Source: Geosiphon pyriformis uo1 (taxonomy: Eukaryota > Fungi > Glomeromycota). From it: 64,000 bases of DNA. Where the stretch lies: positions 435,386 through 499,385 of the forward strand of contig JAAOMT010000627.1 in assembly GCA_016748015.1 (NCBI GenBank). The letters run 5' to 3'. Within the stretch, counting starts at the first letter, position 1; each line of letters starts with the position of its first letter. The position numbers were made by a program, and so were the translations under genes. Under the pieces are notes generated by a model, which saw nothing but the letters and a program-made list of their open reading frames with translations, ran no database searches and was not told the DNA's origin. Shown here piece after piece: positions 10,655-59,990 of the stretch.

Positions 10655-10656
10655 TT

Positions 10657-10673
10657 TGGTGCTTTCTGTGAGG
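10657..10673 (+). promoter_or_regulatory. Primer-binding site of element A (TGGTGCTTTCTGTGAGG)
   Basis: TGG starts 2 nt after the LTR end. The sequence is nearly identical to the PBS of element D. Confidence 0.8.
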
Positions 10674-14251: not shown

Positions 14252-14264
14252 TTATTCTCTCCTT

Positions 14265-14936
14265 TCAAGATTGAGTTCTGTCAAAATTGAAGTTAATTTT
14301 TTTATTGATTTCTATATTATTGTAATAATCTAATACTGTATTATTAATTTGTTGTTGTAAATTTTGAAATTGTAAATTGGTTAATCATTCAATACTATTA
14401 ATTGTTATAAGATTTATAGTTGGATTCAATAGTACTTTGTGACAGTTTTCGAAAGCCTTAAAAATTCTGTAAACAGCTTTTATATGAAGTATATTGTTGG
14501 TTTTTCCAATAAAACTTTCCAATTGTTGTATTATTGTTTTGCTAAATACTTTGACTGAATCTTTTGAGTATAATGTTTATATGTTTAATTGTTTTCCCAA
14601 TTGGTAATAACAATAATTAATGGGAAATTTTTTCTTTAGCTGTTCAAATATACTTGGTGTTAATTCTACTATGTTTATTTCTTCTGTTATCAATGTATTA
14701 TTCAATGCTATTCCTAAATTTTTAATGGTTTTGTCAATAAAGCTGTTACTGTTTTTGGCAATAGTAGTATATGATGCAAAACTAGATTTCTCATTTATTA
14801 TAGAATTTGGTATCATTTTTCTTTTATATGATATCTCAGAACTATTGATTGTAATTTCCAAATCTGAATTTGATTGTTGTAAGCTTTAACATAGTTGTTG
14901 GGTTAACTTACTAATGTTTTCTGGAATATATGTCAT
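14265..14936 (-). pseudogene. Element B ORF3 (about 223 aa, unknown function, internal stops)
   Basis: ATG at 14936: MTYIPENISKLTQQL...FPINYCYYQLGKQLNI...FIGKTNNILHIKAVY...FDRTQS*. Homologous to ORF3 of A and D. Confidence 0.8.
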
Positions 14937-15059
14937 TGTTTTAATTCCTGACTGCTTTTTGGGCTCTTTTGCATGCATTTTTATGCTTTTTTAACTGTTT
15001 CTTGGTGTAATTTAAGATTAATTATCTTTTTATATAATGTTTAATTAAAACTACTGGTT

Positions 15060-16400: not shown

Positions 16401-16431
16401 TGTTTATGAATTGGTTGTTGTTTGATGGTTT

Positions 16432-19400
16432 TTATGTGTGTTTCATTTGCGACAAACAGTCAGCATTGGCATTTTTGGTATCTTCTTTGTATTTAATGAT
16501 ATAATTGTATGGTGCTAATATTTGTAACCATCTGGTGTATTTTCCTTTTAGCACTTTTTTGTTATTTAATCAAACCAAATCTCTATGATCTGTGGTAATA
16601 TTAAAGAGTTTGTACCATAAGTATGTGTCAAAGTGAACACAACTCCAGACTACTGTTAAGCATTCAAGTTCATGTGCTGTGTAGTTTTGCTCTGCCATAC
16701 TGAGACTTCTGCTGGCATAAGCAATTACATGTTCTCTTTCATTATCATCTTTTTGTGACAGAATGGCTCCAAGTCCTGTTCCAGAAGCATCTGTAGCCAA
16801 AATGAATTTTTTGTTGAAATCCAGATAGATTATTATAGGTGATTCAATGAGCTTTTGCCTAAGATACTCAAAAGCTTTTTGCTGTGTTTCAGTCCATTCA
16901 AATTTCACATTTTTGAATAGTAAATAATTAAGAAATTTGGCGATGTTTGAAAAGTTTTCTACAAAGTGGTGGTAGTAAGATGCGAGTTCTAAAAAGCTTC
17001 TAACTTCTGAAATGTTTCAAGGTACTAGAAAATTTTTTACTTTGTCTATTTTTGATAGATCTGGTTTTATTCCATCTTTTCCAACTACGTGTCCTAGAAA
17101 TGCTAGCTCATTTTTCCTAAAGAAACATTTTTTTAAATTTAATTTAAGTCTAGCATGTCTCAATCTCTCAAAAACTTGTTGTAAATGTTGGAGATGATCC
17201 ATGAATTTTGGCGAGAAAACATTTGTATTGTCCAAGTAGACAACAACAGATTGTCACAGAATTCCAGAGTAAATTACGTCCATTAGTCTTTGGAATGTTA
17301 CAGGAGCATTTGTCAATCCAAATGGCATTACATTGAACTCATAATTGTCATTTTGTGTTGTGAATGCTGTTTTATGCCTGTCTTTTGGGTCTATTTCTAC
17401 TTGTCAGTATCCACTGGTCAAGTCAAGTGTAAAAAACCATTTTGCTCCTCCAAAAACATCAAAGATTTTGTCAATTAATAGTATTGGGTATAAATCTTTA
17501 GTTGTTTTGCTGTTTAGTTTGCAATAGTTGATGCAAAATCTAATTTTTCCGTTTTTTTTCCTTACTAAAACAACTGGTAAGGACCATGGGCTCATTGATG
17601 GTTGAATTATTTCTTTTTTCAACATGTTTTGGACTTCTTCTCTGATAAAATTATGCTCTATTGGTGGAACATGGTAAGCACGTTGTTTTTCAGATCTGGC
17701 ATCTCCAGTGGAAATTTGGTGTTAAACCAAATTGGTTCTTCTAAATTTGCCATTTCATGAAAATATATCAGAGTATTTTAAAATTAATGCTTTTAATTGT
17801 CACTGTTGGTCTGGATCCATTGTTCCAATGTTTAATTTGGCCAATTCTTCTGGCATAAATTGATAGCATTCCAACAGTTGTTGCCAATTTATTGAAGTGA
17901 GTTCACAGTAAAGGGTGATTTCTGGGAAATTTAGAATTTTTTGTAGTGTTGATGCATTTTCTAGTTCTGTTCCAAGGTATTCCATGATAATGTTTTCTGG
18001 AATGTATATGAGCTCTTCTGTGGTATTCATAATAAGAATTTTTATCCATTGTGTTTTGTCAGCTGGAATAAAAAGGTTAGTAAGTCCTATGGAAAACTGT
18101 TGGCAAGTTTTTGGGTGGGGCTCGAATATTAAATTTATATCTTTTATTGTCCTTTTTATTTTAATTTCTGATTTTCCATAAGGTGTAAGCATAATTGACT
18201 ACTTAGTTTTAATTAATTCACCTTTTTCTTCTATTGTTTTAGCAAAATTTGCTTCAATTCCTTTTCCTGTTGATTCGAAACCAAAAGTTCCTCTTGTTGT
18301 TTGTATCAATTCCTCACAATTTTCCACTGGCACAAATTTCCCAATTTTTACCAATAGTAGAAAAATTGCTTGTGTAATCTTCTCCTTAAATTCAATGATA
18401 TAAGATTTTTCTGAATTGTTTTGTAGCAAAACCATCAAATTTTCAGTGTAGCTGGAGTTAATTACTCCTTCTTGAATGCTTATTCCTTTTTTCACGAGAC
18501 TTAATTGCGACACTATTTGGACCATTATTCCTGGCAGAATTTCAACCACTATTTTTAGGTTGATTTTAGTAATACTTCTGGGTGGCAATGTCATGGATTG
18601 GTTTTCCAGATACTGTAAATCAAATTTGGCGTCAGTTGGATGGGCTCTTTCAGGTACTATTCCTAAGTGCCCATTGTCATAGTACTGGATGCTGATCTCC
18701 TGATCTAGATCAGTATAGGCTAAAATATTTTCTGACTCAGAACTGTCAGATAAGTTTTGTTGATTTATTGATTGATTTTGGTACTGCTGATTCTTAATTT
18801 CCATTTTCTATTCTAAGTCTTTTTCATATTAACACTCTTCATATTGCTGACTTTGGCACAGAATAAGACAGTCTTCACAAAAGTAAGTGTTAATCTGAGT
18901 GAGATACTGTTCTTGCTCTTGATAAGTGGGGCATAGCTGTTGGTAGTTTTCCTGGAATTTGTCCACTGGGTCGAACATGTTGTAGTTGACAACTTCATTA
19001 GCTATTTTGGCTGACACTTTTCAACATCGTATTTTTTCGGTGGTTTCTCCTCTTACTTTGGCTTGTGTGGTGTTGTATAACTCATTCTCATCATGTGGGT
19101 AGTGCTGCAGTCTTCTTAATGCTCTATTAAACACTGCTTCGAATAGCATTCCTCCTCTTATCCAATCACAGATGAGGATCGTGTATTGGCAAGTTGTGTT
19201 ACATGTTCCTCTTCTGCCTGGTATGTTATTCCAGTCACATCCTCTTGGTAACAGTTCTTCACAAGCAAGGCACAGTTCTTTGTTTCATTTTCCATGTCTT
19301 TCTGGGTAATCGTATTTTTCTTTTTTATAACAGTTACAATAATAGTGGATGGGATTTCTTGGGTCTTTGTCTGGTGTACTGCATGCAATTATAGACAAGA

Positions 19401-22190
19401 GTTTTTTCTTGCAAACTGAGCATTCTAGCTTTGGTTTGTGTTGCTGGTGGTTTTTTCATAGACTTACTTGGTTCTATTCGGATCTTTCTTTGCTGGTCTA
19501 CTTTGGTACGGCTGGTAGTTCTGTTCTTTGGTCATCAGCCCAAAAGAGCTAATAGGTTTCGATGGCTGGTAGTGCTGGATTTTTCTCAAATTCAAAAGTA
19601 GATCTTTGGTTGGTGCTGGGTTTTTGAAAGTGGCCACAGGTGGCTGGAATTCTGGCCTGGTGACCATTATAATTGATTAGAAGCTCTTAGGTAGTCTAGT
19701 TTAGGGTGGCGTTGGCTTTTGTTAGCCAGTCATTCCTTACTAACACTTGATATTGTGTAGCGTTCATTACTAATACTTTTGTAGGTATTATTATACCATT
19801 AATTTCAAAAAAAAATGTGTCAATTTCACCATGAGGCAGCTTGGTACTTCCATCAGCTGTTATAATTTGGAACATCACTGTGTGATCAACTTTGAAACCC
19901 AGTTGGTTTATTAGTTGAAGCATTACAATACTTCTAACGGATCTACTGTCTAAGATGAGTTTAATTGGCATATTGTTTACTTTTGCTTCCATGTACATAG
20001 CAGTGATTGGGCATTCCTTATCCAATGCTGCTCCACTAAACATAACCTTTTTTTCCTCTAATTCAAAAAGAAAAATAGCTGTGAGACTGCTATCTTCTGT
20101 GACAACAACTGGTGGTATTGTTTAGATCAAGTTCTGGCTATTGGTGGTATTTTCAGTTCCAGGTATGTTACTATTAATAATTCTGAGATTTAAATTTTCT
20201 GATATATTAAAGTAAGTTGGCTGGAAATTTGGGTAGTTTAGATAGTTTGTGTTTGTTTGCTGATTAAGTCCTACATGATTAGGATTTCTAGTAATAATTG
20301 CATTTTGACCTAATACTGACTGGCTTCAAAACTCTAAATACCAGTTTGAATTTGGAATTGCTGGTCATTGCTGGTAAGTTTTTTGATTTTGGTACATAGT
20401 GAAGTATTGACATGGTATTGGTGTGTATTGATTTCTGAGCATTTGGGGGGGGTGCGTAATAATTATTTTCATGTGCCTTTTGTATTATTCACATTCGACA
20501 TTGGCTGATTAAATGTCCTACATGTTTGCAAAAATGGCAGGCACATGTTTCTGTTCTGAAGTCCTAATGCAACAAGCAATTATTTTGGCTGCTGCTGAAT
20601 TCCTGGTTGCATCTTTGAAGTGTTTGGTATGTGTTATTTTTTCCTGGGTCTGAGATGAGGTAACTTTCTATTTTTTTAGAGAGTTTCTCCCCTAATTGTG
20701 TTACTCTCTTTTCTAATGTTTTTGTCTTGTTTTCCTCTATTACTATGTTAACTATTTGACTATAATTAGCTTCTTTCTCAGCTAATTCAAGGGCTTTGGC
20801 AAGCATAACGGCTTCTGACAATAAATCAGGGTGGGCAGGGTGTACTCTTCCTAAAATACTGCTTTTTAATCCTCTAATAAATTGATTTAAAACCTGAGGA
20901 TTGATATAGTATCCTTGTTCAATTGCTTCAATCTGATGGCAAATTTGATTGAATCGAGCAAGATATTAGATAACAGTTTTACCAGTACCTTGCTTGATAG
21001 TATTGAATTCATTTTGTAGTTGGATTACAGTGTTTGGGTCGCTAAAATACTCCAGGAGTGCATTTTTAAATTCGGCAAAGCTCATGAGTTTTGTTTCCAG
21101 GCTTTGATACCATGAGTCAGCTGTGTCTTTCAGAAAAAAAGGTAATGTTTGAATTGCTCTTTGGTTATTTCAGTTATTTGCCTGGATGGCTTTTTGTGCT
21201 TTTTTAAGCCATGTGTGCACGTTTGTTTTTTCTTCCTCTCCTGAGAAATCTGTTAGTCTTGTGATGTATGATGTGGCCATTTTGTCGCCATTTTCTACTA
21301 GTGAGCTTATTGGTCTAAGAAGGGGGGATGATATTTCCTTGAGCATTTCTAAAGATGGCTTTTCTTATATTTGGTTCTTCCTCTTAATCATGAGTTTCTT
21401 GGTTTCTGGATTGGCTGCTTGTTCCAGTAACCAGTCTTGTAATTGTTTTTTTGCTGGTCTCTTTTTCGGATTCCGATTCAGACTTCTCTTCATGGTTTTC
21501 AAACTCTGTTCTGAATTTTGGCTGAAAAAGAGGGTTTTAAAATAGTGATGAATATCATCCTGTAATTGGTATGTCTCCCCAGTTATATTGTTTAATTTTA
21601 TCAGTATAACTAGGAGTCCTTGGCATTTGTGGAGTTGATATTAATGATGATGCAGCTTCTAATGAAATTTGTATCTTATTTTCTGGTGAAAAATGGTATG
21701 ATTTATTTTTTGGTAAATAAATATGTTGTTTCTTTATTGATTAAGTGACAGTTTTCTTTGGTGTTTGAACAGGTGTTCCTAGTTTTTGCTGGTTACTTTT
21801 CTGATTAGTTTCTAAATTTTCTTTGGTTTTGTTGACACATTCCCTAGTGTTTCCTGTGAATATTAGAAAATTTTTGTTGGTGTATTGCTCAATTTTTTGA
21901 TGGATTTTAACAATAGTTGTGGCTATTACTGCTACTTCCTTTGTAGTGTATTGTGATAATTCTCTATACAATCCAAGTTTTGCGTTATGTGGTTCTTCTT
22001 TCTTTCCTATGTGGTAATTTATTCTGGCATTGATATAATAAGTGGGAGCAAATTCTGCTGGACAACACCCTTCTGGTAATCTAAGATCACTTTGATTTTG
22101 TGTGTAAATAGCATGGCAGAATTCAAAAACAGTAAGAGTAGGGGTTTTTGTTACCACTTTTGTTTCTTTCTTTTTAGCAATAAATTATTG
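16432..22190 (-). pseudogene. Element B gag-PR-Cys-rich-dUTPase-RT-RNase H polyprotein relic
   Basis: ORF fragments at 21741-22157 (gag N-domain), 20564-20821 (gag), 19696-20043 (PR, LDSRS), 18199-18804 (dUTPase), 17404-17625 and 17017-17235 (RT) and 16570-16908 (RNase H, TDASGTGLGAIL). It ends NADCLSQMKHT* at 16432. Confidence 0.9.
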
Positions 22191-22239
22191 CTAATTATTA
22201 TTTTTTTTTTGATTTTTTTTTTTCATAGGGTTCATCAAA

Positions 22240-23029
22240 TGTTACAGGATAGTTTTCTTGGTATATTTTAATTGTTGATCTCCCGTTTTAATTGCAATCA
22301 GTCTCTCATAAGTTCTTTTATTATGTGTTGGATATTAATGATAATGTACTGAAGGTTTTCTTTTGATGTTGTGATGTAAGTTTTTTCTCTAGTTTTAGTT
22401 GTCTTTGTATGTTGTGTACTTCTTCCCAGAGGCTAATCTGAAATCTACTTGCTGTCTGGGGTTTTCTTTGAGGCTATCCCTGCAATTGTATGATGTGTTT
22501 TTTTAATCTAGAAACACGAAATGTTAATGGTCTTTTCACAATTTCCCTAAGTATATAATAAGCTTTTTTCAATTTAATTAGTAATTACGTAAATAATCTT
22601 AATCAGAGATTATTTTTCCAAAGAGTTTAAAGATGGAATAATAGTTTCATTTGCTAAAGAGAGTATGTGAATTCTATTGTTAATCTTGTAATTGTAATGT
22701 TTATTCAATTTATTATTTTTATTAATTCTTTTTAAATAAGATTTTATTTAGATATTTATTGCTTTTAGTTGAAGCTTGTTCTTTTTTATTATTAAAAATT
22801 ATTGTATATATATATAATTATTGTTTTACAAAATAATGTCTTGTAATATTCTATTTCTGTTATTTTTAAATAATGCTTGCTACTATTGTACAATAGTGCT
22901 TGATGCTATTGTAAAATAGTGCTTGCTGTTATTTGTAAATCATTTCTTTTTATAAATTGTTGCTGTGCTATTTCATGATTGGCTAATTTATATTATTTAT
23001 AATTCCTATTAAATTCTTGAACTGTAACA
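22240..23029 (-). repeat. 5' LTR of element B (790 bp)
   Basis: TGTTAC...GTAACA ends, three copies of the 23-bp unit, followed on the minus strand by the decayed PBS TTTGATGAACCCTATG. Confidence 0.95.
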
Positions 23030-23033
23030 ACAC

Positions 23034-26000
23034 AAAAGCTTCAAATCAGCTAGAACAGTCAACACACACATGTACTTGCCATGTGTGGCCACTTCAAGCC
23101 AATTACTATGCCAACAGCATCTCTTATCGAGTTCGAGAAAGAAGAAAAGAAACCTACTTGGGAAGCCTATCAAGTGTTATGGGCTAAAGCAGATCACAAT
23201 AAGTTACCACCAATACTCTCTTGGGATGATAACGGAAAAGAGAAACAAAAGGAAGGACTTACCTAGAATGCCAACCAAGACTGAGAAACTAACAATAACT
23301 CAAACAAATTACCAACCTGAGAATGGGAAGAAACCAATAAAGAAAAAGAGAAAAAAAAGGAAGAAAATATAACCAAAGAAACTACTGCCACAAAAAAAAT
23401 AACTAGGGGCTGGGAAAAAGAATACTTACAAGAACTGATCAAAGAGCCACCATGTATACTTCTCAAATGCAAGGACTGTGGGAAGAAACTTTCTTTCATG
23501 AGAGCTTGGATCACACCAAATGAAAATTACTGGATCCAAACCCACTATTATTACAAGTCTTGCCACTGCAAATACTATGGCTACCCAAAAAGACAAGACA
23601 AGTGAGACAACGAACTATGTCTTGCTTGTGGCGAACAACTATTGAATGAAGGAATATGGAACAACATTCCTGAATGAGGAGGAACATATGACACTTTGTG
23701 CCAATACACAATCTTCATCAGCAATTGGGTGAGCCATGATATGCCAATAACTGCTGCCTAGCACTGTGTAATATCTCACTTGGATGGTTACCCACACGAC
23801 GAAGACGAGATTTGGCAAATGGCAAACACCAAAGTAGAAGGTGCCACACCTAGCAAAATATTAGAAATCAAGAACAACTCTCTGAAGACAGTCAACATTG
23901 TTTTGATTCCCAACCCAGATGCTTTTCTGAATCTGGAAGCAGACCCAGAAGAATTCCATGAGCACTACCAAAATTTGGCACCAACAAGAGAAAAACAAGA
24001 GCAGTGTTTAGCCCAAATCAACACTTGACTATGTGACTATTGTTTAATTCTCTGTGACTTTCAATATTGTAATGAGTGTGACCTTATTTACAATCCACCC
24101 ATCCGCATAATCTACACAATCCCAGAAGAAAATGAACCAATAAGCAACTGCGCATTGGAATTGGAATCAGTTTTTAATCTCAATTCAAACTCTGACAGCA
24201 ACAATGACAAAAACACCAGTTCTAGCTTCACTCAAAACGGCAACAAAAATAACAATGATTTGGACCCCAATTCAAATTCCGAAACATATATCACTCTCCC
24301 TGACCTTACCAAGGAGCAAGAACTGAAATGGTTCAGCAATAATAATGAAGGTATTATGTCTGAATGTGTATATAATACTGATGCAAGATTTGATCTGAGA
24401 TATCCAGAGAAAAATTCCATCAAATTAGAACTTTACTCACACACTTGTATTGATCTGAAAATAGCATTGGAAATTTTAACAACAACAATAGTGCAATTAG
24501 CATCCAGAAATAGTTTAGCAAAAAAGAGAATCAATATTAGAAGAGAAATAATTAATGCAAAATACATAGAAAATATTATTGTTATGCTACAAAATGACTC
24601 AGAAAAAACATATACCATAGAGCCAAATGAAAAGATAACACAGGCAATATTTTTATCTCTGGTGAAAATAATTTAGTTAGTTTCAGTAGGAAATAAGGAA
24701 GAATTAGGGATTACTGTTAGAGAGATACAAGGATTCAGATCAATAGGTAGAATAGATATACTAATTAATATGACAGAGGAAAAAATTGTTGACAAAAAAG
24801 AAATTATCTCAATCCGTCAATCAATCTCCATTCCACCATATAACTAGTATATATTAGCTATAAAAAGAGAAATAAAGAATCAAGCTCAGTTGTTTGAAGC
24901 AGAAGCTGCCATTTGTGAATCAGGAGAAATTGGACTCACCAATCTCTACATATCAGCCAACAGCCCCAAGAATATCAAAATTTCCATCTACAATACAATA
25001 GGACATGTTATTGAAATACTAAAAGAAACCATCATTGGATATTTAACCACTGAAGTTGAGGACCAACCACCAAACCATATTCTAGATTTTCCACAGCTTT
25101 GTAGATATGTGGACATCACATTACAAACCATTTATGGACGAAACAAATGTTATCTACTTGAACCAGAACAATTGGAACAGATAAACATGGGGAATCTAGA
25201 CCCACTCCAACAGATACAACTAAAGACATTACTTAGCAACTTCAATGACATCTTTGCCAGTGAAAACGAATTTGGCAGAACCAACATCATCCAGCATCAG
25301 ATCAAAACTGGAGATGCAATGCCAATTAAACAAAGAGCATACAGAGTACCACCAGCTAGCCATAAGATCATTCATCAAAAAATTAATTGAATGCTTGACA
25401 ACAGGCTAATTCAGCCATTAATGAGCCCATAGTCATCACCAGTGGTATTAGTCCAGAAGAAAAATGGAAAAATCCACTTTTGTGTGGATTACTGGAAACT
25501 GAATAGAGTAACCAAAGGAGATAGCTATCCAACGCCCAAAATCCAAGAGCTGTTTGACACTTTTGAAGGAAATAAATGGTTCTTAATACTAAATTTGGAT
25601 AGTAGTTACTGGCAAGTAGCCATGGATCTAGCTGACAAAGAGAAAACAGCATTTACCACAAGAGAAAGAAATTTTGAATTTGAAGTCATGCCATTTGGAT
25701 TGATGAATGCACCAGCCATATTCCAATGGCTAATGGAAATTGTATACACTGGACTACTATGGAAGTCAGTAGTTGTATACTTGAATAATACCAATGTATT
25801 CTCAAAAACATTTGATGATCATCTGTATCATCTTCAACAAATGTTTGAAAGGTTAAGAAGAACCAAACTAAAATTAAATGCAACCAAATGTTTCTTTAGA
25901 AAAACTGAACTCAAGTTTTTGGGACATGTGGTGAGCAAAGATGGAATCAAAACAGATTCAGATAAGATTGCATTAATAAAGAACTTTCCAGTACCAGCAA

Positions 26001-26577
26001 ACTTGCCAGAACTGAGGGCATTTTTGGGATTTGCAGACTATTATCGCCGTTTTATTAAGGACTTTTCTAAACTAGCCCAGCCACTTTACCATTTACACAC
26101 CAAGAATGTGAAGTATAAATGGACTGAAATTCAACAAGAAGCGACACATTGAGAAAAAAGCTTATTCAAGCTCCAGTATTGATGTATCCAGACCATAGCA
26201 AACCATTCATCATCACTATGGATGCATCAGATCAAGCATTGGGAGCAGTACTATCACAGAAAAAACCAGATGGAAGAAAACATCCAGTAGCTTACACCAG
26301 TAGAAGCTTAAGTTCAGCCAAAAAGAACTATAGAACACCAGCACTAAAACATTTAGCAATCTATTGGGCAATCATAAAATGGAGAGAATACTTGAGCCAA
26401 AAGTTTGAAATATATATGGATCACAAAGGATTGACTTCAATCCAGAAACAAGAATTTGCAGACAATTGTCATGCCAGATAGAAAATAGAACTTTCACTAT
26501 TTAATTATACAATACATTATAAAAAAGAAAAAGACAATGGAAATGCTGACAAATTGTCGTGAATAAGACAAATCTAA
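23034..26577 (+). pseudogene. Element A pol: protease tail, Cys-rich domain, dUTPase, RT, RNase H
   Basis: dUTPase motifs DARFDL, SRNSL and ITQAI (24330-24750). RT ORF 25442-26152 (FCVDYWKLN, MPFGL, YLNN) and RNase H 26149-26481 (MDASDQALGAVL). It ends NADKLS*IRQI* at 26577. Confidence 0.9.
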
Positions 26578-26607
26578 AAACATTTCAACCCAAAAATATA
26601 ACAAAAC

Positions 26608-27980
26608 ATAAATACACAAAAATATTAACAACTTCAACATTATATAAATATGCAATCATTTAAAGAGAAATTATCTCAAAAAGAACAAAACAACATAAAA
26701 CAACAATCAAAATATTTTAAAATATACTTTACTGAAAGAACAAAAGAAATTCAGATCAACCAATCAGAGTAATCACAGAACCAGAGAAAGAGACAATATT
26801 ATTCAACATACACTCAGACCCAACAGCAGGACATTTTTATAAAGAAGCAACCATGGAAAGAACCAGAAAAAGATACTATTGGCCATCAATGTATTCAGAC
26901 ACCATTCAATATATTCAAAATTGTAATGCTTGTCAGAGAAGAGGAGGAACAAAACCCAGTAAACCATTAAGACCAATTAAAGTAGGACAATTATTCAATT
27001 GCATTGGAATTGACTTAGTCAGACCATTAACAATCACCAGCAGAGGCAACAGATATATTACAGTAGCTATGAATTATCTCACTAAATGGCCAAAAGCAAA
27101 AGCCATTCAAAGAACAGATGCAGAATTTGTTGCCAAATTTGTTCATCAAAATTTGATCTGTTAATATGAATGTCCAAAAAAACTACTATTAGATCAAAAA
27201 ACTCACTTTGTGAACAGAACACTGGCAGAATTAAGTCAAAGATTTGGAGTTAAAAGACCATTGTTATCACCATACCATCTACAAACCAATAAACTAGTTG
27301 AAAAATTTAACAAAACATTGTGTAAAGCAATCACCAAAATCAGTCAAGAAAACCAAAATGAATGAGATTTGTTCATACCATTAGTATTATTTGCTTATCA
27401 GACAATAAAACAAGACACTACACAAGCAACACTATTTGAATTAGTATATGGTAGAACAGCAATACTACCAGTGGAAATAGAAGTCAGCACATACCCAACT
27501 GAACCAATAACAAAAGAGAATTTCAAAAACACATTATTGAGAAAAACATATGACTTAATGGAAACATTAGAAGACAAATGATGAAAAGCAGCTGATAACA
27601 TACAAAAGTCACAAGAGAAACAAAAAAAATGACATGATAATCAACTACCAAATAAACCAGTTGAATTCAAGATTGGAGACAAAGTATTTTTATATCATAC
27701 CAAAGCAGAAAAACAATGGAGTAGAAAATTTGACCCCAAATGGGATGGACCATTTCACATAGAAGAAATTCTTGAGAATGGAGCTTATAAATTAAGATGA
27801 GACAACAAAATTTTAGCCAAAGCAGCACATGGTAATTGACTAAAACTATATTACCAGATAGCATCATCATTTACCAATAACATTCTACAACTAGAAATAC
27901 AAAGAATACTAGTTCAACCAGATGAGATTCCATAAGATCTAGAACCAATCATAATTATTGAACCAAACATGTCAAATTGA
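26608..27980 (+). pseudogene. Element A integrase as a stand-alone ORF
   Basis: Motifs HSDPTAGHF...CNAC, IGIDLVRPL and KWDGPF. The inferred start is ATA (probably a decayed ATG) at 26608, 30 nt after the RNase H stop. Confidence 0.8.
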
Positions 27981-28036
27981 ACAACCAAAAGAATATATAA
28001 GGGCACAATATACATGACAAAAGCAACCAAGATAAA

Positions 28037-28672
28037 ATGGAAATACCAGATCATATTCACATCATAGCTCAACAATTATTTCAGGCCTTAAGTCAACAAC
28101 TCCTGAACATAGAAATTATTGTTAACAACCAAACAATTTGCTATTGAAACACCAAAAGAAAAACAAAGAATACACCATATCAGCAATTACCAAAGAATAA
28201 TAAAAACTGGTCAGATAACATAATAGAAAAAGTAAAGAACACTTTTGGGAAAATACCTATTATGGCACCAACAGAAGAACTTACAAAAAAGAATTAGAAG
28301 CAATGGACAAAACAACTTCTAATATCATACTACTACTACCAGTTAGGTCAGAAGTTAAATATTTAGGAGTTGTATATTAACAAATTCAAGAAAATATTTA
28401 ACCAAAACATAATACAGCAAATTGAAGAATTTATTGGAAAGAAAACAAACTCAACACTACATATGAAAGCAATTTACCAACTGCACAACATATTTCAGAA
28501 CTATCCAGAATTACTGTTACACTCTAACATGGAAACCATAACTATTAACCAATGGGGAAAAATAAACAATGTACAAGTAGAAGACATGAAAAATAAAGTC
28601 GAACAAACAATACTAGAAAAAAAAGTATTAGAGCTAATTCAAAATAAAGATTTCAATGGAGCTCAATATTAA
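28037..28672 (+). pseudogene. Element A ORF3 (211 codons, unknown function)
   Basis: ATG at 28037: MEIPDHIHIIAQQLFQ...YYYQLGQKLNI...FIGKKTNSTLHMKAIYQL...DFNGAQY*. One frame with a few stops; the final stop abuts the PPT. Confidence 0.8.
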
Positions 28673-28687
28673 AAAAGAAGAAAATAA
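28673..28687 (+). promoter_or_regulatory. Polypurine tract of element A
   Basis: AAAAGAAGAAAATAA immediately before the 3' LTR; equivalent tracts are present in B and D. Confidence 0.75.
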
Positions 28688-29502
28688 TGTTACTCATAGA
28701 AAGAAAACAGATATAGAGAAATAGTAGACCAATAAGCAAATAGCATATAGCATATAAGCACATTGCTTAGCAAGGTGGAGCAATATCAGAAAACATGGCA
28801 CATTGCTTAGCAATATGGAGCAATGTTAGAAAATTAGTGTGCATTGCTCAAAAAATTATAGCACATTGCTTGGGAATGTGAGTGATTTCATAGAACATCA
28901 ATTATGTATATATAGTAGTAGCATTAAAAGTAAAAAGAGCAGAATCTTTTAGTTAGAAATCTTCTATCCACAAATATTAAATAAATAAATCATTCACCAT
29001 CCAAAACCACTCTTTACTATCAACACTTTATGTTGATAGTAATTGATACTTAACCACACTAGAACAATAGCTCTTGATCATGACTATTGATAGGATACTA
29101 ACTTGCAATTGCTTTTGTTTATTTCTTTATTTTTTTTTATTTTTTTTTGTTATTTTTTTTGTTTTACTAATTGATTAAAGAGTTAAGTGCTAAGTTATTA
29201 ATATCAAAAATAGTCTGGTAAAAGACTCCAAAGGAAGGGTATCAAAATTGAGAATTTAAGGATAGCTTACCAGAAGGGCATCTCTGCCAAGATTACCAGC
29301 CACCACACTGAAAAAAAAATTTGACGGAATTGCAATTCTGGAAGGCTATGGGAAAGACAACAATTGAATCTCTGTTTATTATACAAAAGACTCCACAACA
29401 AAACCTTCAGATCATCATCATCATTACTAATGACAATAACTCTTGAACACCAAGTTATGGGTTTGTTATTTGACTTGAGACCCCAAATAATCATCTGTAA
29501 CA
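28688..29502 (+). repeat. 3' LTR of element A (815 bp)
   Basis: Direct repeat of 9830-10654, TGTTAC...GTAACA, followed by TSD GCAT. Confidence 0.95.
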
Positions 29503-49726: not shown

Positions 49727-49730
49727 ACAT

Positions 49731-50583
49731 TATTACTCATAGAATATAAGAAATATAGTATTATTAGTTAATAGATATTAGCCAATCAGATGTAGACGTA
49801 GTAAATGTGGAATTTCAAGATTCTTTTTAGAGGAATTGCAGGATTCCAGAAATTTCAGAATTCTCTGACAAGAAATCACAGGATTCCAGAATTCCAAGAT
49901 TCCTCTTATCAAGAATTGCAGAATTCCAGAAATTCCAGGATTCTTGTCATAAGAAATTGAAGAATTGAGGAATCTCAGATATGTATATATAGCAGTAGCA
50001 TTAGAAGCAAAAAAGACAGAATAGACACCAAGAGTTCTTAGCTTAGTTACTACAATCCTCAAATAAATAATTATTCACTATATCAAATTCACTTTTCACT
50101 ATCAACACTTTATGTTGATAGTAATTAATACTTAACCACACTAGAACAATAGCTCTTAATCATGGCTATTGACAGGATACTAACTTGCAAATCACCTTGG
50201 CTTATTTCCTTATATTTCTTTATTTTCTTTATGTTTCTTTGATTTTGCTATTGTGTACTAACCAATTGATTCAAAGTGCTGATTACTGACATTAAAGATT
50301 GCCTGGTAAAAGACCCCTGCAAGTGGGTAGAACATGTACAGAAGATATGGATTACTTACCAGAGGATTGTCAGCCACCAAGCTGAGAAAAAAATTAACAG
50401 ACTTGCAAGTCTAAGAAGCTATAGATAAACAATTATTGAATCTCTGTCCATTATACAAAAGACTCATTTGGAAAACCTTTAGATACCAACTACTTAAAAA
50501 TATTATCCACAATGTGAATAGCTTTTGAGCACCAAGTTATGGGTTTAGTATTCACTCAACACTCCAAAGACACACCTGTAACA
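49731..50583 (+). repeat. 5' LTR of element D
   Basis: Direct repeat of 59138-59990, TATTAC...GTAACA, with a CCAAT box, GAATTCC-type repeats, TATA and AATAAA. Confidence 0.95.
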
Positions 50584-50585
50584 TT

Positions 50586-50602
50586 TGGTGCTCCCTGTGA
50601 GG
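50586..50602 (+). promoter_or_regulatory. Primer-binding site of element D (TGGTGCTCCCTGTGAGG)
   Basis: TGG starts 2 nt after the LTR; complementary to a tRNA 3' end ...CCTCACAGGGAGCA-CCA. Confidence 0.8.
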
Positions 50603-53600
50603 TATAATCTTACAGAGAACCAACACCAACAAACACTATCCAAAAGAGACAGAATCAGAAAATATAAGAGCAAACCATTTAGGATTTGTGAAATTCTTAT
50701 TTCAACATTATTGTCAACACTTAGGATTAAACCCCAATCATATATCTGCCAAATCAGTCTTTAATTTTTATGTCAACAAAAAAATTTTCTCTTTGTTAGG
50801 AACACTAGTGAATACGGAATCAGCAAAGAAAACTTTCTACAGAAAATTAATTCAAAACACCAACCTACCAACAAATCATAATTTCGCATCTATTATCACT
50901 GAGATCAACAAAGAAATTAAACATCACACCCAACAAAGATATCTGATTACATATGCTAGTAAAGACAAAAAAAAACTACAAACACCAGCAGTAACTCCCA
51001 GAAAAATACAACTACCTACTTGGAAGAAAACAAGAGTTGAATCACCAACCAATCTATCTTATCACTATACACCTGGAAGCACCATCAACATTTTATCAAC
51101 AGGCACATCCACATCAAACACAACATCAGCATTTGGACGATTCTCATTCCAAAGTAACCAAAGAAAAACAGAATTATTAGGACCATATGGCAAATACTTT
51201 GAAGGATTTAAATCGCAATCACCAACACCCTCAGGAATTTGATCACCACTGCCTCAACCAGACTTTGGAACCACTACCCCATGAGAACTATTTAAAGAAA
51301 AAGAAGAAGAAGAATCAGAAGATTAAGAATTTACTTGCCAGAACCTGATCACTAAAAACCCGGAAGTTGAAACACTGAATCTTCAAACTCAGCAAAATTT
51401 AAATTTAAAAAACCCAGAAATCAAAACTCCGAATATTCAACCACCACCAAATCAGAACAATTAGAACCCCAATCTAATTAATCAACCAGACTTATCTCCT
51501 ATTATTGTCATCTACCCACCACCAGTTGAACTGATTGGCCAGCCACCACAACAATCACACCAGCAGATTCAACAACCACTAGTACTACTTCAACAACCAC
51601 CACAACCCAACTTAGATCCAATGGCATATGCACTGATAGCCAAACTCGAGAAATTTACTGGCGAAGAGAACAACACTCAAGCCTGGATCAACGACATCGC
51701 CAAAACAATTACTGCCAATAACTGAGATAATGCCAGAACCATGCAAGTCATCCCCTATTTTCTCAAAGACATGGCAGACTCTTGGTATCACAGTCTAGCC
51801 CAGAAACCTCAAAACTTTAATGCCTTCAAATTAGAATTTTTGAGGTATTTTAATGATAACAACAGTATTAACCACTTGGCAAGTACTTTCACCACCATCA
51901 AACAAGAAGACACAGAAGCAGTCACTACTTACTTGAGATGCTTCCATAAAAATCTGCACCAAATTCAGGCAATTCAAGCTGACTACTTTATAGTGCCACA
52001 GATCTTGAACCAATTCATTCAAGGATTGCACAGTAACATTCTCCAGCAAGTATGTTCAATGCATCCAATTAATTTCCCAACCATCATAACTCATGCCAGA
52101 GATTTTGAAGCCACTGAATTAGAAGCTAATCATGCCCAAGCTGTGAATATAGTAATGAATAGATCATCTGACCTGGATTCCAAGCTAAAACAATTCAGTG
52201 ACAACATCAATCAAAAATTGGAGGGCTACTTAGCTGACAATTGTGCAATTTATCAGCCACCCCAATGATGTAATGATTTAGGAAGCGTGAATTGTTTCCA
52301 GAATCAATCATGTCCAGGATTGTCTACTAATCAGTCATGACAGCCAGAAATGCATGTCTGCTACAACTGTGGTAAACAAGAGCATATTAAGACCAACTGC
52401 CATACTTATAGCAACCCACAATCAGGAAACCATTATTGAAACCCCGATTGCCAGTTTTAGACTCCGAATTACCAATCCAATTAAGTGCAATATCAAAATG
52501 CTTACCTGCCTATGATGCAGCCACCAATTTATCAGCCACCAATATATCAACCACCAATTTATCAGCCACAGCCACCAACAATTTATTAACCGCAGCCACA
52601 AGTCATTTATCAGCTGCAGCCTTAAGTAATTTATCAACCCCAACAAGTTCAAATGCCACACCAAAATTCAGCTATGATGATGTCAGGAAACCTGAGATCC
52701 AGAACCACCCAAAACTGAAGATCAGCAATGGTCATTCATTAACCAATTTTCAGTTCATCAGGCCAACAATCAGGATCTTGTTAGCAAAATTCGGATATCA
52801 GTTTCACCCAAAACCCGAATTCCCAGAACTATTTAAGTCTCCTGGTTACTCCAGAAAATATTATCTCTAACAACCCAGAACTCGATTAACAACCAACAAT
52901 ACTTACCAACAACAATCTACCAGCAATCATCACCAATGATGAATTGTTAGCAGCCATCTTTTTGTTTGAACTTGAGGAAGTTATGTCAGTCCCCTTATTC
53001 AATGAAGCAGCTCTGGAAGAAAAACCCATCACTGCTATATACACTAATACAAAAGTTGATGGCTACTCCATCAAGTTAATTCTTGACAGTGGTTCAGCAG
53101 ACAGCATCATTACATGACAACTCATGGATCAATTAGGTCACTGAGTTGATCAAGCTGTCAGTGCTAGAATCATTACTGCTAATGGCACCACAAAAATGCC
53201 TATTGGTGAAATCGACGACTTCCCAATTGAAGTTAATGGCATCATTACTTCTATCAAAGTCTTAGTGATGGAGACAACCCAATACTAAGCACTAGTGGGC
53301 AATGATTGGTTGTCTAAAAACAATACTGTTCTCAACTGGATTACACAGGAGCTCCAGCTCAGCCAAAATGGCCAGCACATGCAAGTACCAGCAACGTGTA
53401 GCCATTTTAAACCTAATAACGTCACGACATCAGCACTGCTTATCAACCTTGAGAAAAAACAACTAAAGTCTACTTGGAAGACATACCAAGTATCGTGAGC
53501 TGACGTTGACCACAATGAACTGCTGTCAATACTCGCCTGGGATGACAATAACAATAAAAAGAAGGGACAAGAAAAAGAACCTACCAGTGGAACTACTATC

Positions 53601-56600
53601 GATACTTGGACTGATGACAATGACCACCACGAGCTAACACCAATACTATCATGGGACAACAACTCCAAGGGAAAGCAAAGAGAGGAATTTATTTGGGAAA
53701 TGGACGACCTGACCTAAACCGACAACAATGAAAGAGAACCAACACCAAGCTGAGAAGGGGAAGAAAGCAACAAAGGGAAAAGAAAAGTGAAAAAAGAAGA
53801 GCCACTGCCAACAAACCCGTATACCTCCTGTCAACACACAACACCACAACAATTCACCTATTGCCGACCCAAACTAGTGTGCATCAATTGTGGCAAAAAA
53901 TTGTTGTCAATGAGCGCATGCTGTGGCAACGACGAAGAGTATCAGACAGCAACCAAGTTTTATTGCTGCACATGTCTTGTCAAACACTTTGGAAGACCAA
54001 AATGAGTGGGAAAATAAGATAATACATTATGTTTAGCCTGTGGAGAAACTCTCCTCAATGAAGAAATGTGAAATGACATTCCTGGAAAAAGAGGAATGTG
54101 CGATGTTTTCTGCCAATACACAATCCTCATCAGCAATTGGATCAAGAAAGGAACACCAATAGAAGCTGCTTAGAGAAGAGCTGTACAGTGATTGGACAGC
54201 TGTCCACACAACAATAATGAATTATGGCAAATGGCAATCACCAAAATTGAAGGTGTGTCATCAGAAGAAATCAAGACAATTAAAAACAACCCATCAAAAC
54301 CCATCGAGCTTGACTGGGACACAGAGCCAGTCATAAATTTTCTGGAACCAAAAAAGTTCTATGAATACTACCAAAACTTGACACCCATTAGAGAGGAGCA
54401 AGAATAATGGCTAGCACAGTTGAATACAAGACTGTGTTATCATTGTTTAATTCTCAGTGACTTTGAATATTGTAACAATTGTGATCTCATTTACAATCCA
54501 CCACCATGCATGATCTACACAATTCCCAAAGAGGAAGAACCAATCAGCAGATGCGCATCGAAATCGGAATCACCATTCAATCCCAATTTAAACTCTGACA
54601 ATGACGACAATGAGAATAACAGTTCCAGTTCCATTCAAAATGACAATAACAATGACAATGATATTAACTCAGATTCAAATTCTAACTTAAACTATGAACA
54701 ATATATCGCGCTTCCTGACCTCACCAAAAAACAAGAGCTGAAATGGTTCAGCAATAATAATAAAAATATTATGCCAGAATGTGTGCATGATATTGATGCC
54801 AAATTTGACTTGAGGTATCCAGGAAAAGATGCCATCAAACTAGAACCACATTTGTGCACCTGCATTGATCTAAAAATAGTACTGGAAATCTCAGCAACAA
54901 CAATGGTTCAATTAGTATCCTAGAGTAGTTTAGCAAAAAGAGAGATTAATATAAAAGGAGGAATAATTGACACAGGATATGTAAGAAATATTATTGCCAT
55001 GCTACAAAATGACTCAGAAAAGGCCTATATAATAGAGCCAAACAAAAAAATAGCACAAGCAATATTTTTACCTTTGGTCAAGATAGCTCAGTTAGTACCA
55101 GTAGGAAATAGGGAAGAGTTAGGAATAACAGCAAGAGGGATACAAGAATTTGAGTTAACAGGTAAAATAGATGTATTAGTTAATATAGTGAAGAAAGAAA
55201 TTGTTGGCCAAGGAGAAATTATCTCAACTGGTCAAGCTATTTGTATTCCACCATATAGCCAGTACATGCTAGCAATAGAAAGGAAAAAAAAGGAACAAGA
55301 ACAGATTTTTGAGGCTGAAGCAAACCTTTGTAAATTAAAAGAGATTGGGCTGATCAATCTCTACATACTAGCCAAAAGCTATAGCTGCATAAAAATCCCC
55401 ATCTACAACAACACTGGCAATATCATCAACATACCAGAAAGAACCACCATCGGATATTTAACCACAGAAATAGAAGACCAAACCCCAAACCCCATTTCAA
55501 ACTTTCTACAACTTTGTGGATATGTCGATATCACATCACAAACAATCTATGGACAAAACAAATGTTATTTGCTCCAACCAGACCAATTAGAACAAATGAA
55601 CATGAGAAATCTGGACCCACTACAACATATGCAGCTCAAGATATTACTCAACAATTTTAATGACATTTTTGCCAGCGAAAATGAATTTGGTAGAACTGAC
55701 ATCATTCAACATCAAATTAAGACTGGAGATGCAATGCCAATCAAACAGCGAACATACAGGGTACCACCAGCCAGTCATGAAATCATTCATCAAGAGATCA
55801 ATCAAATGCTTGACAATGGGCTAATCCAGCTGTCTATGAGTCTATGGTCATCACCAGTAGTACTCATCCAGAAAAAAAATGGGAAAATCCGCTTTTGTGT
55901 GGATTATAGAAAACTCAATGGAGTAACTCATAGAGATAATTACCTCATTCCACAAATCCAAGAATTATTCGATGCTTTCGGTGAAAACAAATGGTTTTCA
56001 ACATTAGACCTGGACAGTAGTTACTGGCAAGTAGCCATGGATTCAGCCGACAAAGAAAAGACAGCATTTATCACTAAAAAAGGGAATTTTGAATTTAAAG
56101 TAATGCTATTTGGCTTAACCAACACACCAGCCACTTTCCAATGGTTAATGGAAATTGTTTATACTGGCTTATTATGAAAATCAGTAGTTGTATACTTGGA
56201 CAACACCAATGTATTCTTAAAAACATTTGATGATTATTTTCATCATCTTCAACAAGTGTTCGAAAGATTAAGAAGAGCAGAACTAAAGTTAAATGCAACA
56301 AAGTGTTTTTTTGACAAGACAGAACTAAAATTCTTGGGACACATAGTTAGCAAAGATGGCATCAAAACGGATCCAGAGAAAATAGAGATAGTAAAGAACT
56401 TTCCAGTGCTGACCAATATGACAGAACTGAAATCATTCTTGAGATTTGTCAGCTATTATCAATGTTTTATCAAGAACTTTTTCAAGATAGCACAGCCACT
56501 CAACCAACTGCAAACCAAGAATACAAAATATGAATAGACAGAAAGTCAGCAAGAAGCTTTTGATATTCTGAAAAGAAAGCTCATTCAAGCTCCAGTACTG

Positions 56601-56996
56601 ATCTATCCAGATCACAGCAAACCATTCATCATCACCACCGATGCATCCAGCCAAGTATTGGGAGTAGTACTATCTCAGAGAGGACCAGATGACAGAGAAC
56701 ATTCAGTAGCATAAGCCAGCAGAGGTTTAATACCAGCCAAAAAGAACTATAGAACACTAGAACAAGAACACTTAGCAATATACTGGGCAGTCATAAAATA
56801 GAAAGAATACTTGAGCCAGAAGTTTGAAGTATACACAGATCACAAAGGACTAACATCACTTCAAAAACAAGAATTTGGAGATGGAAGACAGTCAAAATAG
56901 AAAATGATACTTGTACCATATAATTATACTATACATTATAAAAAGGGAAAAGACAACGGAAATGCTGACAGTTTGTTGTGAATAAGACAAATTTAA
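50601..56996 (+). pseudogene. Element D single-frame gag-PR-Cys-rich-dUTPase-RT-RNase H polyprotein (about 2130 codons, many nonsense changes)
   Basis: ORF pieces starting at 50688, 51741, 53295, 53787, 54192, 54420, 54999 and 56196 all share one frame. Motifs: CYNCGKQEHIKTNC, LDSGS at 53082, dUTPase motifs, YLDN, TDASSQVLG. It ends NADSLL*IRQI* at 56996. Confidence 0.9.
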
Positions 56997-57059
56997 GAAC
57001 ATTTCAACCCAAAAATATAACAAAACCAGAACAATACCAATGAAAAATATAACAAAAAG

Positions 57060-58441
57060 ATAAACATACAAAAATATCAACAACTACAACATTATATAAA
57101 CACTCAACAGTTCAAGGGAATTTATCTCAAATGGAACAAAAGAGTATTGAACAACAATCAAAATATTTTATTATTCACCAAAATATACTTTATTGGAAAA
57201 ATAGAAGAGATCTAGAGCAACCAACCAGAGTAATTACAGAACTAGAAAAAGAGACAATATTATTCAACATGTACTCAAATCCAACAGCAGGATACTTTTA
57301 CAAAGAAGCAACCATGGAAAGAACCAGAAAAAAATACTATTGGCCATCAATGTATCCAGACATCATCCAATATGTTCAAAATTGTGATGCTTGTCAGTGA
57401 AAAGGAGGTATGAAATCCAGTAAACCATTAAGACCAATTAAAGTGGGACAACCATTTGACTATATTGGAATTGATTTAGTTGGACCATTAACAATCACCA
57501 ACAGAGGAAACAGGTACATAGCAGTAGCCATAGACTATCTCACTAAATGGCCAGAGGCGAAAGCAATTCAAAGAGCAGATGCAGAATCCGTTGCCAAATT
57601 TGTTTATTAAGATTTAATTTGTCGACATAGATGTCCAAAGGAATTATTATTAGACCAAAGAATTCATTTTGTGAACAAAACATTAACAGAATTGAGCCAA
57701 AGATTTGGAATTAAGAGACCACTATCATCACCATATCATTCACAAACCAATGGATTAGTCAAAAGATTCAACAGAACATTGTGTAAAGCAATAGCTAAGC
57801 TCAGCCAAAAAAACCAGAATGATTGGGATTTGTTGATACCATCAGTACTATTTGCTTATCAGACAATGAAGCAAGATACCACACAAGCAACACTATTTGA
57901 ATTAGTATATAGTAGAACAGCAACACTACTAGTGGAAATAGAAGTCAGCACATACCCAACTGAACCAATAACAAAAGAAAATTTCAAAAACACATTGTTG
58001 AGAAAAACATATAACTTAATAGAAACATTAGAAAATAAACAAAGAAGAGCAGCTAATAACATACAAAGATCACAAGAGAAACAAAAAGAAAGACATGATA
58101 ACCAACTACCAGATAAACCAGTTGAATTCAAGATTGAAGACAAAGTATTACTACATTATACCAAAGTAGAAAAACAATAGAGTGGAAAATTCGACCCTAA
58201 ATGGGACAGACCATTTCACATAAAAAAAATTCTAGGAAATAGAGCTTACAAATTAAGATTGAATAACAAAATCTTGACCAAAGCAGCACATGGAGATCGA
58301 CTGAAACCATACCACCATATAGTATTATCATCCACCAGTAATATTTCACAATTAAGAGTACAGAGAATACTAGTTTAACCAGATAAGATTCCATGAGATC
58401 TGGAACCAATCATTATCATTGACAACAACACATTCAATTGA
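57060..58441 (+). pseudogene. Element D integrase as a stand-alone ORF
   Basis: Inferred start ATA at 57060 and a 1-nt deletion near 57120. Motifs: CDAC, IGIDLVGPL, LLLDQRIHF, NGLVKRFN, KWDRPF. Confidence 0.8.
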
Positions 58442-58464: not shown

Positions 58465-59124
58465 ATGGTCGACGCAACAGAAGAGATCAGAAAAATAGAA
58501 ATTACAGACAATATCTATTCACTAGCCCAATAAATTTTTCAATTAATACAACACTAGGAGATAGAAATTACAATCAATCAACAAACCATTTGTTACAAAA
58601 ATACGGCAAAGATACCACAAAACAAAACACAGAAAAAACTTAAAAATGTTGTTGACAAGATCATAACCAAGATAAAATTGGCCATAAAAGAACAACAAAT
58701 AGTCAGATTACACCAAAAACTTACCAGAGAAACTTGGACTTGGTGGACGCAACAATTTCCAAAAAACTATTGTCATTTTCACTTGGAACAACATGTAAAT
58801 ATCCAGAATTTGTACACCGATAAAACAAAATAGTTATTTGACACAACAATACTGAGACAACTGGAACAATTTGTGGGAAAGAACAATCTAACCACACAAG
58901 CTCAAGCTATTTACCAGCTATATATGAGATTTCAAGACTGACCAGAAATCTTACTCAACACAGCAATGGATACAGTTACAAGTAATCAATTAGGAAAAAT
59001 GACCAATGCTCAATTTGAAGAACTACAAACTAAAATAACACAAGTAATACTCGAAAAAGAAGTTCAAGAAATAATTCAAGAAGAAGAATTAAAGGAATTA
59101 GATTTTGATGGAGCTCAATATTAA
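58465..59124 (+). pseudogene. Element D ORF3 (about 210-219 aa, unknown function)
   Basis: Single frame: (I/M)EITDNIYSLAQ...FPKNYCHFHLEQHVNIQ...FVGKNNLTTQAQAIYQL...DFDGAQY*. The start aligned with A is 58495; an in-frame ATG is at 58465. Confidence 0.8.
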
Positions 59125-59137
59125 AAAAAGAGAATAA

Positions 59138-59990
59138 TATTACTTATAGAATATTGGAAATATAGTATTATTAGTCAGTAGATATTAGCCAATCAGATGT
59201 AAACATAGTAAATGTGGAATTCCAAGATTCTTCTCAAAGGAATTGCAGGATTCCAGGAATTTCAGGATTCTCCAACAAAGAATCACAGAATTTCAGAATT
59301 CCAAGATTCCTCTCATCAGGAATTACAGAATTCTAAGAATTCCAGGATTTCTGTCACAAGAAATTGAGGAATTGAAGAATCTCAGATATGTATATATAGC
59401 AGTAGTATTAGAAACAGAAAAGACAAAATGGACACCAAGAGTTCTTAGCTTAGTTATCACAATCTTCAAATAAATAATTATTCACTATATCAAATTCACT
59501 TTTCACTATCAACACTTCATGTTGATAGTAATTGATACTTAACCACACTAGAACAATAGCTCTTGATCATGGCTATTGACGGGATACTAACTTGCAAATC
59601 ACCTTGGCTTATTTCCTTATATTTCTTTATTTTCTTTATGTTTCTTTGATTTCGCTATCGTGCACTAACCAATTGATTCAAAGTGCTAATTACTGATGTC
59701 AAAAATTACCTGGTAAAAGACCCCTGCGAGTGGGTAGAACACATACAAAAGATATAGATTACTTACTAGAGGATTGCCGGCCACTAAGCTAAGAAAAAAA
59801 TTGACAGACTTGCGAGTTTGAGAAGTTACGGATAATCAACTATTGAATTTCTGTTCATTATACAAAGGACTCATTTGAAAAACCTTCAGATACCAACTAC
59901 TTAAAAATATTATCCACAATGCAAATAGCTTTTAAGCACTAAGTTACAGGTTTAGTATTTACTCAACATCCCAAAAACACACCTGTAACA
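59138..59990 (+). repeat. 3' LTR of element D
   Basis: Direct repeat of 49731-50583, followed by TSD ACAT. Confidence 0.95.

Follow-up and report, generated by a model that had tools for sequence, protein, structure and literature searches.

In textbook LTR elements, integrase (IN) enters the particle as part of Gag-Pol. Two published accounts place the enzyme within Pol in canonical Ty3/Gypsy elements (PMC3248453, PMC12440569). Further sources describe enzymes made on their own: foamy virus Pol is made apart from Gag and needs another route into the particle (PMC3705302), and Ginger1 comprises a single transposase gene between 40-270 bp terminal inverted repeats (TIRs), with no reverse transcriptase (RT) (PMC2836005). 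Studies of ribosomes that restart after a stop codon report that fungal UAAUG coupling runs at 2.5-4.4% (PMC2699510), that TURBS-type reinitiation has a limit of ~30 nt and is reportedly independent of Kozak context (PMC10275272), and that LINE-1 crosses a 63-nt spacer while SART1 and CaMV also reinitiate, the CaMV restart working from a few to 700 nt (PMC5972666). In the literature that we searched, with most subscription papers, supplements and Repbase outside it, we found no LTR element whose integrase was described as a stand-alone gene.

We analysed a 64-kb stretch (the window) of the genome of Geosiphon pyriformis, 41% of which is LTR sequence (PMC11952901). An initial annotation had described three full-length elements here; full length they are, but one is nested in another and all are heavily decayed. 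Element A (9830..29502, + strand; LTRs 9830-10654 and 28688-29502, 88% identical; target duplication GCAT) has element B inserted inside it (13439..23029, - strand; LTRs 23029-22240 and 14251-13439, 90.5% identical; target duplication GTGT). Element D lies between a 5′ LTR at 49731..50583 (+), which starts TATTAC, a decayed TG end, and a 3′ LTR at 59138..59990 (+), which ends TGTAACA and is followed by ACAT; its 4-bp target duplication is completed by ACAT at 49727-49730, and its LTR pair is 90% identical. Direct LTRs, TG...CA ends and 4-bp target duplications make all three elements Ty3/Gypsy-like, the duplications indicate that they integrated normally, and the order of their genes (Gag, protease, RT, RNase H, integrase) matches Ty3/Gypsy. 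Within each of the three LTR pairs, nearly every difference is a transition, often at CpA or CpT and not just at CpG, a pattern that reflects a broad C-to-T process. Elsewhere in the window lie a solo LTR ~67% like those of B (39403-40270, +), a fourth gag-protease fragment that follows an N gap and runs off the window end (61700-64000, +), and host genes with ubiquitin-like, PIH1 and BRO1 domains and without CpG depletion (34640-37320, 44472-45857).

Behind the 5′ LTR of D, a primer-binding-site-like stretch with a TGG start (50584..50602, +) may resemble the end of an elongator tRNA-Met. ORF1 (50601..56996, +), for which 50601 is the extent of the frame and not a fixed start codon, encodes Gag, protease, dUTPase, RT and RNase H in a single frame of 2132 codons interrupted by decay stops (36 stops, counting the terminal TAA). 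Pfam matches were obtained to gag, dUTPase, RVT_1 and RT_RNaseH in D and to the protease in B. The dUTPase domain sits between protease and RT (54924-55127, 24368-24667 and 18807-18202 in the window, and also in the relative L072), with a cysteine-rich stretch ahead of it in A and D. An ancestral TAA after the RNase H end motif closes ORF1 (56994..56996, +); beyond an intercistronic spacer (56997..57059, +) lies the integrase ORF (57060..58441, +), with a YPYY-type N-terminus, H2C2, a DDE core and SH3/GPY-F, decayed by one frameshift near 57117 and 5 internal stops. ORF3 (58465..59124, +; 219 aa) starts 23 nt past the integrase stop and ends at the polypurine tract.

The three junctions had been annotated accurately: the TAA stands at 56994-56996 in D, 26575-26577 in A and 16434-16432 in B, and the spacers measure 63, 30 and 31 nt. 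Those of A (junction 26575..26610, +) and B (16398..16434, -) contain no G and that of D contains 4, in keeping with their description as nearly G-free. Also as described, A and D share a second in-frame TAA (26599-26601 and 57018-57020) and carry ATA at the aligned integrase start (26608 and 57060, both in frame with pol), and B has an ATG, at 16400, in a frame other than that of pol. This ATG has A at -3 and G at +4 and opens a decayed integrase ORF (15022..16400, -), with an ORF3 homologue ~43 nt beyond its stop. No structure is predicted in the spacers of A, B or D; that of D amounts to a 30-nt spacer plus an internal repeat with a period of ~33 nt, and contains an out-of-frame ATG at 57040.

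Comparison of 14 other D stops showed that A and D share 3 further stops at aligned, normally sense codons, so the TAA that they have in common is by itself weak evidence. These shared decay stops and the mostly transitional LTR divergence are what one would expect if the stops before integrase were convergent C-to-T decay of a formerly fused pol. We therefore turned to sister copies, placing on D the contigs of one DNA run, possibly the window's own sample; 31,255 contig pieces fell on 2.4 kb, so the copy number of D's family is very high. At 56994-6 and 57018-20 no other letter occurs at 2% or more (summed depth ~5e5-9e5), and the neighbours of the TAA vary, 56993 differing in 89% of the depth and 56997 in 47%. 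In a 121-base test on 920 contigs, six positions differ at ≥2%, both TAA flanks included and neither TAA among them. At 57062, one of the 40 best-supported of 703 differences, A>G accounts for 170,759 of 206,615 in summed depth (83%, 39 contigs), so that the ATA of D is ATG in most sister copies. The question of whether the TAA and a downstream ATG are ancestral thus receives a positive answer, from the retained TAA and the G in 83% of depth at 57062. Sense codons at this position or an open RNase H-integrase (RH-IN) frame, the outcome that the initial annotation had set against its own reading, did not appear: sister copies keep the TAA and the relatives described below are split. Together with the sister copies, 0/42 fused junctions among these relatives refute decay of a fused pol, as does the split in elements whose ORF1 of 1100-1600 codons and integrase are both open, and the probability that we leave to it is next to nil.

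Judged from the loci compared, the split occurs in a large Gypsy-type retrotransposon lineage of mycorrhizal fungi and soil. Among the best 120 of 534 near-length protein matches (41-52% identity to the D integrase; named relatives come from Rhizophagus irregularis, which has several intact integrase copies of 430 aa, and from Entrophospora), 118 start with M, at lengths of 359-453 aa; the methionine is both first residue and first profile position in 109, and the residue after it is always D, E or N (109/109). To avoid gene-caller bias we also read DNA directly, in the best 80 of 535 metagenome stretches: ATG stands at the aligned start in 57/57 integrase loci that reach profile position 1, and not one of the 42 loci with a visible RNase H end has RNase H fused to integrase. 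The base at -3 is A in 35 of 50 non-redundant integrase starts, compared with 107 of 318 internal in-frame ATGs (p=1.6e-6). Elements with an open ORF1 (1136-1621 codons) and an open integrase are split as well (L008, L014, L017). The H2C2, DDE and GPY/F features of Ty3/Gypsy integrases are present (catalytic D in 60/60, D in 59/60 and E in 58/60; GPY/F in 115/120), and no chromodomain was found in P0001 or among the listed domains of the 120 matches. Three integrases of the fungal lineage in bacterial or archaeal bins (P0326, P0489, P0559) are probably contamination, and 4 weak integrase matches in viral contigs were left out of the analysis. The search for intact copies in relatives thus found a split at 42/42 junctions and, with the sister copies, backs the annotation's inference of an ancestral split and an integrase expressed as an independent gene. 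As a matter of anatomy it is close to certain that both the stop and the AUG are ancestral and occur throughout the lineage.

For the geometry of the junctions, the 42 were reduced to 35 by removing 3 near-duplicates, 2 with premature stops and 2 lacking an automatically called ATG, whose start was placed manually afterwards. The distance from stop to start varies between -14 and +727 nt, and each of the three frames occurs: 10 junctions overlap (-1 TAATG, -4 ATGA, four of -8, two of -11 and two of -14), 19 lie at 24-97 nt, 3 at 136-163 nt and 3 at 365-727 nt. The frames are evenly used (15/10/10, p=0.49), and this spread of distances and frames disfavours readthrough or frameshifting as a means of still producing a fused RH-IN protein. 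Removal of a small intron would be a third such means, and a GT-AG intron able to fuse the two genes is possible at just 6 of the 35 junctions. A, D and L006 are indeed in frame, but A and D carry two in-frame stops, and a fused product would not need an invariant Met. The lineage does have a readthrough-type signal (UGA-CUA) elsewhere: an in-frame TGA-CTA precedes RT in 5 of the 12 loci with a closed RT frame. These sites lie between the Gag-protease gene and RT (L022:3290-3295, L028, L042, L058:3358-3363, L068:1585-1590), resemble a known readthrough signal, and probably act by stop-codon readthrough; a recognisable candidate recoding signal is thus present before RT, with none at the integrase junction.

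Fused production is also suggested by three annotated fungal gene models that bridge into integrase (P0122, P0123, P0125). They were among the best 120 of 1007 matches obtained when longer proteins were sought, which also included fused polyproteins and Ginger1-like proteins of lower identity. We set the three aside because each lacks different conserved junction residues; judged from protein alone, they are likely to be intron-bridged gene models. The sole clearly nested true fusion is P0124, which lacks the Met and lies in the split group with L010 at 100/99; forcing it out of that group was rejected (p=0.037) by a test that also held L072 in. Taken together, we consider it very improbable that a fused RH-IN protein is still produced.

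Termination-reinitiation on a polycistronic genomic RNA is the best mechanism that we can propose, and one that we hold to be modestly probable. The Gag-protease-RT-RNase H gene ends at a true stop, and integrase is a downstream gene possessing its own conserved AUG; ribosomes would terminate at the ORF1 stop and restart at the nearest AUG on the same genomic RNA, post-termination ribosomes shifting back by up to 14 nt or forward over an AUG-poor, G-poor spacer. Such a process would yield a low integrase-to-Gag ratio without a frameshift. Reinitiation is favoured by the stop/start overlaps at 10 of 35 junctions, with 19 more at 24-97 nt, and by the match of these overlaps to those that viruses use. 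All 10 overlap loci contain 3-7 upstream ATGs within 120 nt, which should impede ribosomes that scan from a remote cap. AUG-poor spacers also favour reinitiation: across 21 spacers (L061, with a gene inside, was dropped), ATG is the most depleted of the 64 triplets (4 vs 13.8, 0/1000 dinucleotide shuffles). Under single-base shuffles of 22 spacers, ATG occurs 6 times vs 19.4, and GTA, with 7 against ~19 expected, is equally scarce, which counts against reinitiation.

Other observations also weigh against it. Stop and start lie within ~20 nt of each other, the criterion for TURBS, in 10/35 relatives, and stand 30-63 nt apart in the window, where the spacers (30, 31 and 63 nt) are at or beyond the ~30-nt TURBS limit; the strong Kozak context at integrase starts further argues against a TURBS type. 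The out-of-frame ATG within the D spacer is unfavourable, and L058 (727 nt, 12 ATGs) and L072 (371 nt, 7 ATGs), which have no coupling gene near the integrase start, do not fit. No shared spacer word emerged (no 5- or 6-mer exceeds shuffles in 16 plain spacers), nor a general excess of structure upstream of stops (1/25 loci only), and both absences count against reinitiation; no required upstream element was found at the split-element junctions. The CAA-rich spacer named in the annotation does not generalise: among relatives, spacers may be T-rich, overlapping or structured. T-rich or CT-rich spacers were seen in several loci.

Several of these features suit what we regard as the main rival, in which integrase (and ORF3) would be translated from shorter capped mRNAs whose promoters lie inside the element, within the RNase H region or the spacer. 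A short capped leader would account just as well for the AUG depletion and the Kozak context, the strong -3 purine context occurs in all junction classes, and the T-rich or CT-rich spacers and the long ATG-rich gaps of L058 and L072 would be readily accommodated. Internal promoters do not, however, require overlaps at 10/35 junctions or abutting chains of three or four genes, and the upstream AUGs kept in overlap loci speak against them; we judge this rival to be rather unlikely. Of the two routes named in the annotation, reinitiation or a subgenomic RNA, the comparative evidence thus leans to reinitiation.

The abutting chains, and the similar spacing of the genes that follow integrase, are further points in favour of reinitiation. 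Past the integrase end, genes start at -8, -4, -1, +32, +34, +40, +41, +55 and 112-167 nt; of 20 loci checked, 13 have a long gene that begins between -8 and +167 nt, and its absence within 170 nt in the other 7 is a point against reinitiation. Long gaps often contain accessory genes that abut one another and integrase (L049, L044, L037, L047, L070), with spacings of +32, -13 and -8 in L049, -4 and -4 in L044, +28 and -4 in L037, and +19 and +2 in L047 (chains at L049:903-1399, L044:252-1237, L037:602-736 and L047:55-481). The 238-aa gene of L044, on a contig where RT is not visible, has an Mrr-like restriction endonuclease domain (E 5e-9). ORF3 is present at ~220 aa in all three elements (58465-59124 (+) in D, and near 28034-28669 (+) and 14927-14379 (-)); its 106 relatives are all annotated hypothetical genes of Geosiphon pyriformis, none was found among the 84 relative loci, and it showed neither a Pfam match above cut-off nor a membrane segment. 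As to a possible element-encoded reinitiation factor, neither ORF3 nor the accessory ORFs gave an informative match.

One subclade combines an extension of 216-315 aa after RNase H with a 40-nt motif just upstream of the integrase AUG. Extensions of 216-587 aa were observed in L014, L017, L021, L033, L045 and L058, and those of L014, L017 and L058 have no Pfam match. The motif folds as a hairpin that is closed by a stem of 3-4 bp and comprises a GUGAAAGC-N-AAG bulge and a 6-bp stem with a CANNGYGA loop, its 3′ end lying 0-33 nt upstream of the AUG. Across 17 sequences, 97% of cells are paired and 7 pairs show double changes, a covariation above 500/500 shuffles and all slid controls, with the proviso that kinship may inflate the shuffle test; a 2-bp pseudoknot is possible, in nearly invariant columns. 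The search gave 21 hits in 81 sources (L017:4464-4500 and 20 others, e.g. L011, L014, L026, L033 and L045), none of them in the window. There was no Rfam match and a single, sub-threshold hit elsewhere, and the exact pattern has no match in viral or prokaryotic genome collections. This conservation points to RNA-level control of integrase synthesis in the subclade, and the mechanism may differ between subclades.

Structure-directed, cap-independent internal initiation, or RNA processing that exposes the integrase AUG, is favoured by the covarying hairpin at this position, but the hairpin is missing from the window and from most other loci and the window spacers are predicted to be structureless; we judge this account distinctly improbable. 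The subclade also bears on splicing, whereby an mRNA resembling that of foamy virus Pol would join the 5′ leader to an acceptor just upstream of the integrase AUG: all 17 hairpin loci (17/17) have a CAG or TAG 1-17 nt upstream of the AUG, after a T-rich tract, and the hairpin could mask such an acceptor. GTA is, moreover, scarce in spacers. The AG is nevertheless replaced by GG, with a compensating change, in 2/17 hairpins, the G-free spacers of A and B contain no AG, and where junctions overlap or the spacer is plain the distance to the nearest YAG varies from 0 to 267 nt; splicing is accordingly an improbable route.

The integrase gene begins at a YPYY-type motif (Y12, P19, F/Y37, Y/F45), which has been recorded from Ginger1 and a few Gypsy groups, Athila/Tat-related elements among them (Bao 2010, PMC2836005). 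We built integrase trees from 105 rows with FastTree (5 short loci omitted) and from 36 hand-picked rows with IQ-TREE, the labels Ginger1-like, Gmr1-type and plant-type being our own, based on the content and order of domains and on placement in the tree, and not taken from database names. Split integrases, Ginger1-like proteins, a plant-type integrase and four fused proteins form one branch (99/98, IQ-TREE). Within it, the main split group has support of 96 in FastTree, 72/91 under LG+G4 and none with a mixture model; AU tests on the order inside the branch gave p=0.25 and 0.20, and a sister clade of split integrases and Ginger1 was neither recovered nor rejected by FastTree, IQ-TREE or the AU tests. 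By these trees the split integrases are akin to Ginger1 transposases, branching order aside. An RT-RNase H tree (72 rows, 16 short rows omitted, no named reference elements) groups 21/23 split elements at 86, nested with low support among fused Gypsy-like proteins.

A more far-reaching reading would join these strands into an old operon-like LTR lineage, with 3-5 genes per RNA expressed by serial stop-restart and with integrase as a free Ginger1-type gene never joined to Pol; fused relatives (P0124, possibly plant Athila/Tat) would be later re-fusions, and one subclade would control integrase through a new RNA structure. We think this combination unlikely. If true, a lineage with never-fused integrase would be a surviving connection between Gypsy elements and the DNA transposons of the Ginger1 group.

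A putative free integrase would, as a logical consequence, need a different packaging route. Speculatively, it might reach the cDNA by binding the RNA that encoded it, or meet the cDNA ends outside the particle, like free Ginger1 transposases. The split itself is real and sets the whole lineage apart from the gene plan of Gypsy elements, and the mechanism proposed for it is probable; a thriving lineage without a link between integrase and Pol shows that the fusion is dispensable, and reinitiation, if right, would be a new mode of gene expression for such elements. How integrase finds its cDNA becomes testable, as does the restart of eukaryotic ribosomes after long genes on nuclear-made RNA, and the lineage is a candidate intermediate for the open relationship between Gypsy and Ginger1. 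Pipelines that call the pre-integrase stop decayed, or bridge it with an intron, misjudge intact elements in symbiotic fungi.

Among the systems introduced above, foamy viruses resemble the split elements in making an enzyme apart from Gag, but they use splicing to detach Pol in its entirety from Gag, whereas here integrase alone is split off and RT stays with Gag. CHV1 (UAAUG), HvV190S, SART1 and LINE-1 likewise place a downstream start on or near an upstream stop, with overlaps of -1 and -4; these RNA viruses and non-LTR elements each couple a single junction, whereas the distances in the split elements vary widely and their chains reach four genes. CaMV is also reverse-transcribing and has several tightly spaced or overlapping long ORFs, but relies on TAV, and no TAV-like factor was identified in the split elements. 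Ginger1 shares a free-standing enzyme, TGTNR ends, 4-bp duplications and YPYY before the zinc finger (PMC2836005); in contrast to Ginger1, the split elements carry LTRs, Gag and RT, and have neither long TIRs, a Ulp1/OTU/PHD tail nor a CCGG target preference. Troyka was rejected as a match, since it has 3-bp duplications and CG ends (PMC12440569). With canonical Ty3/Gypsy the elements share LTRs with TG...CA ends, a 4-bp duplication, the order from Gag to integrase and the H2C2-DDE-GPY/F architecture, and they differ from it in an integrase outside Pol, extra abutting genes, a dUTPase and the lack of a chromodomain. By this comparison of gene plans, the split elements are a Gypsy-type variant and not a member of canonical Ty3/Gypsy.
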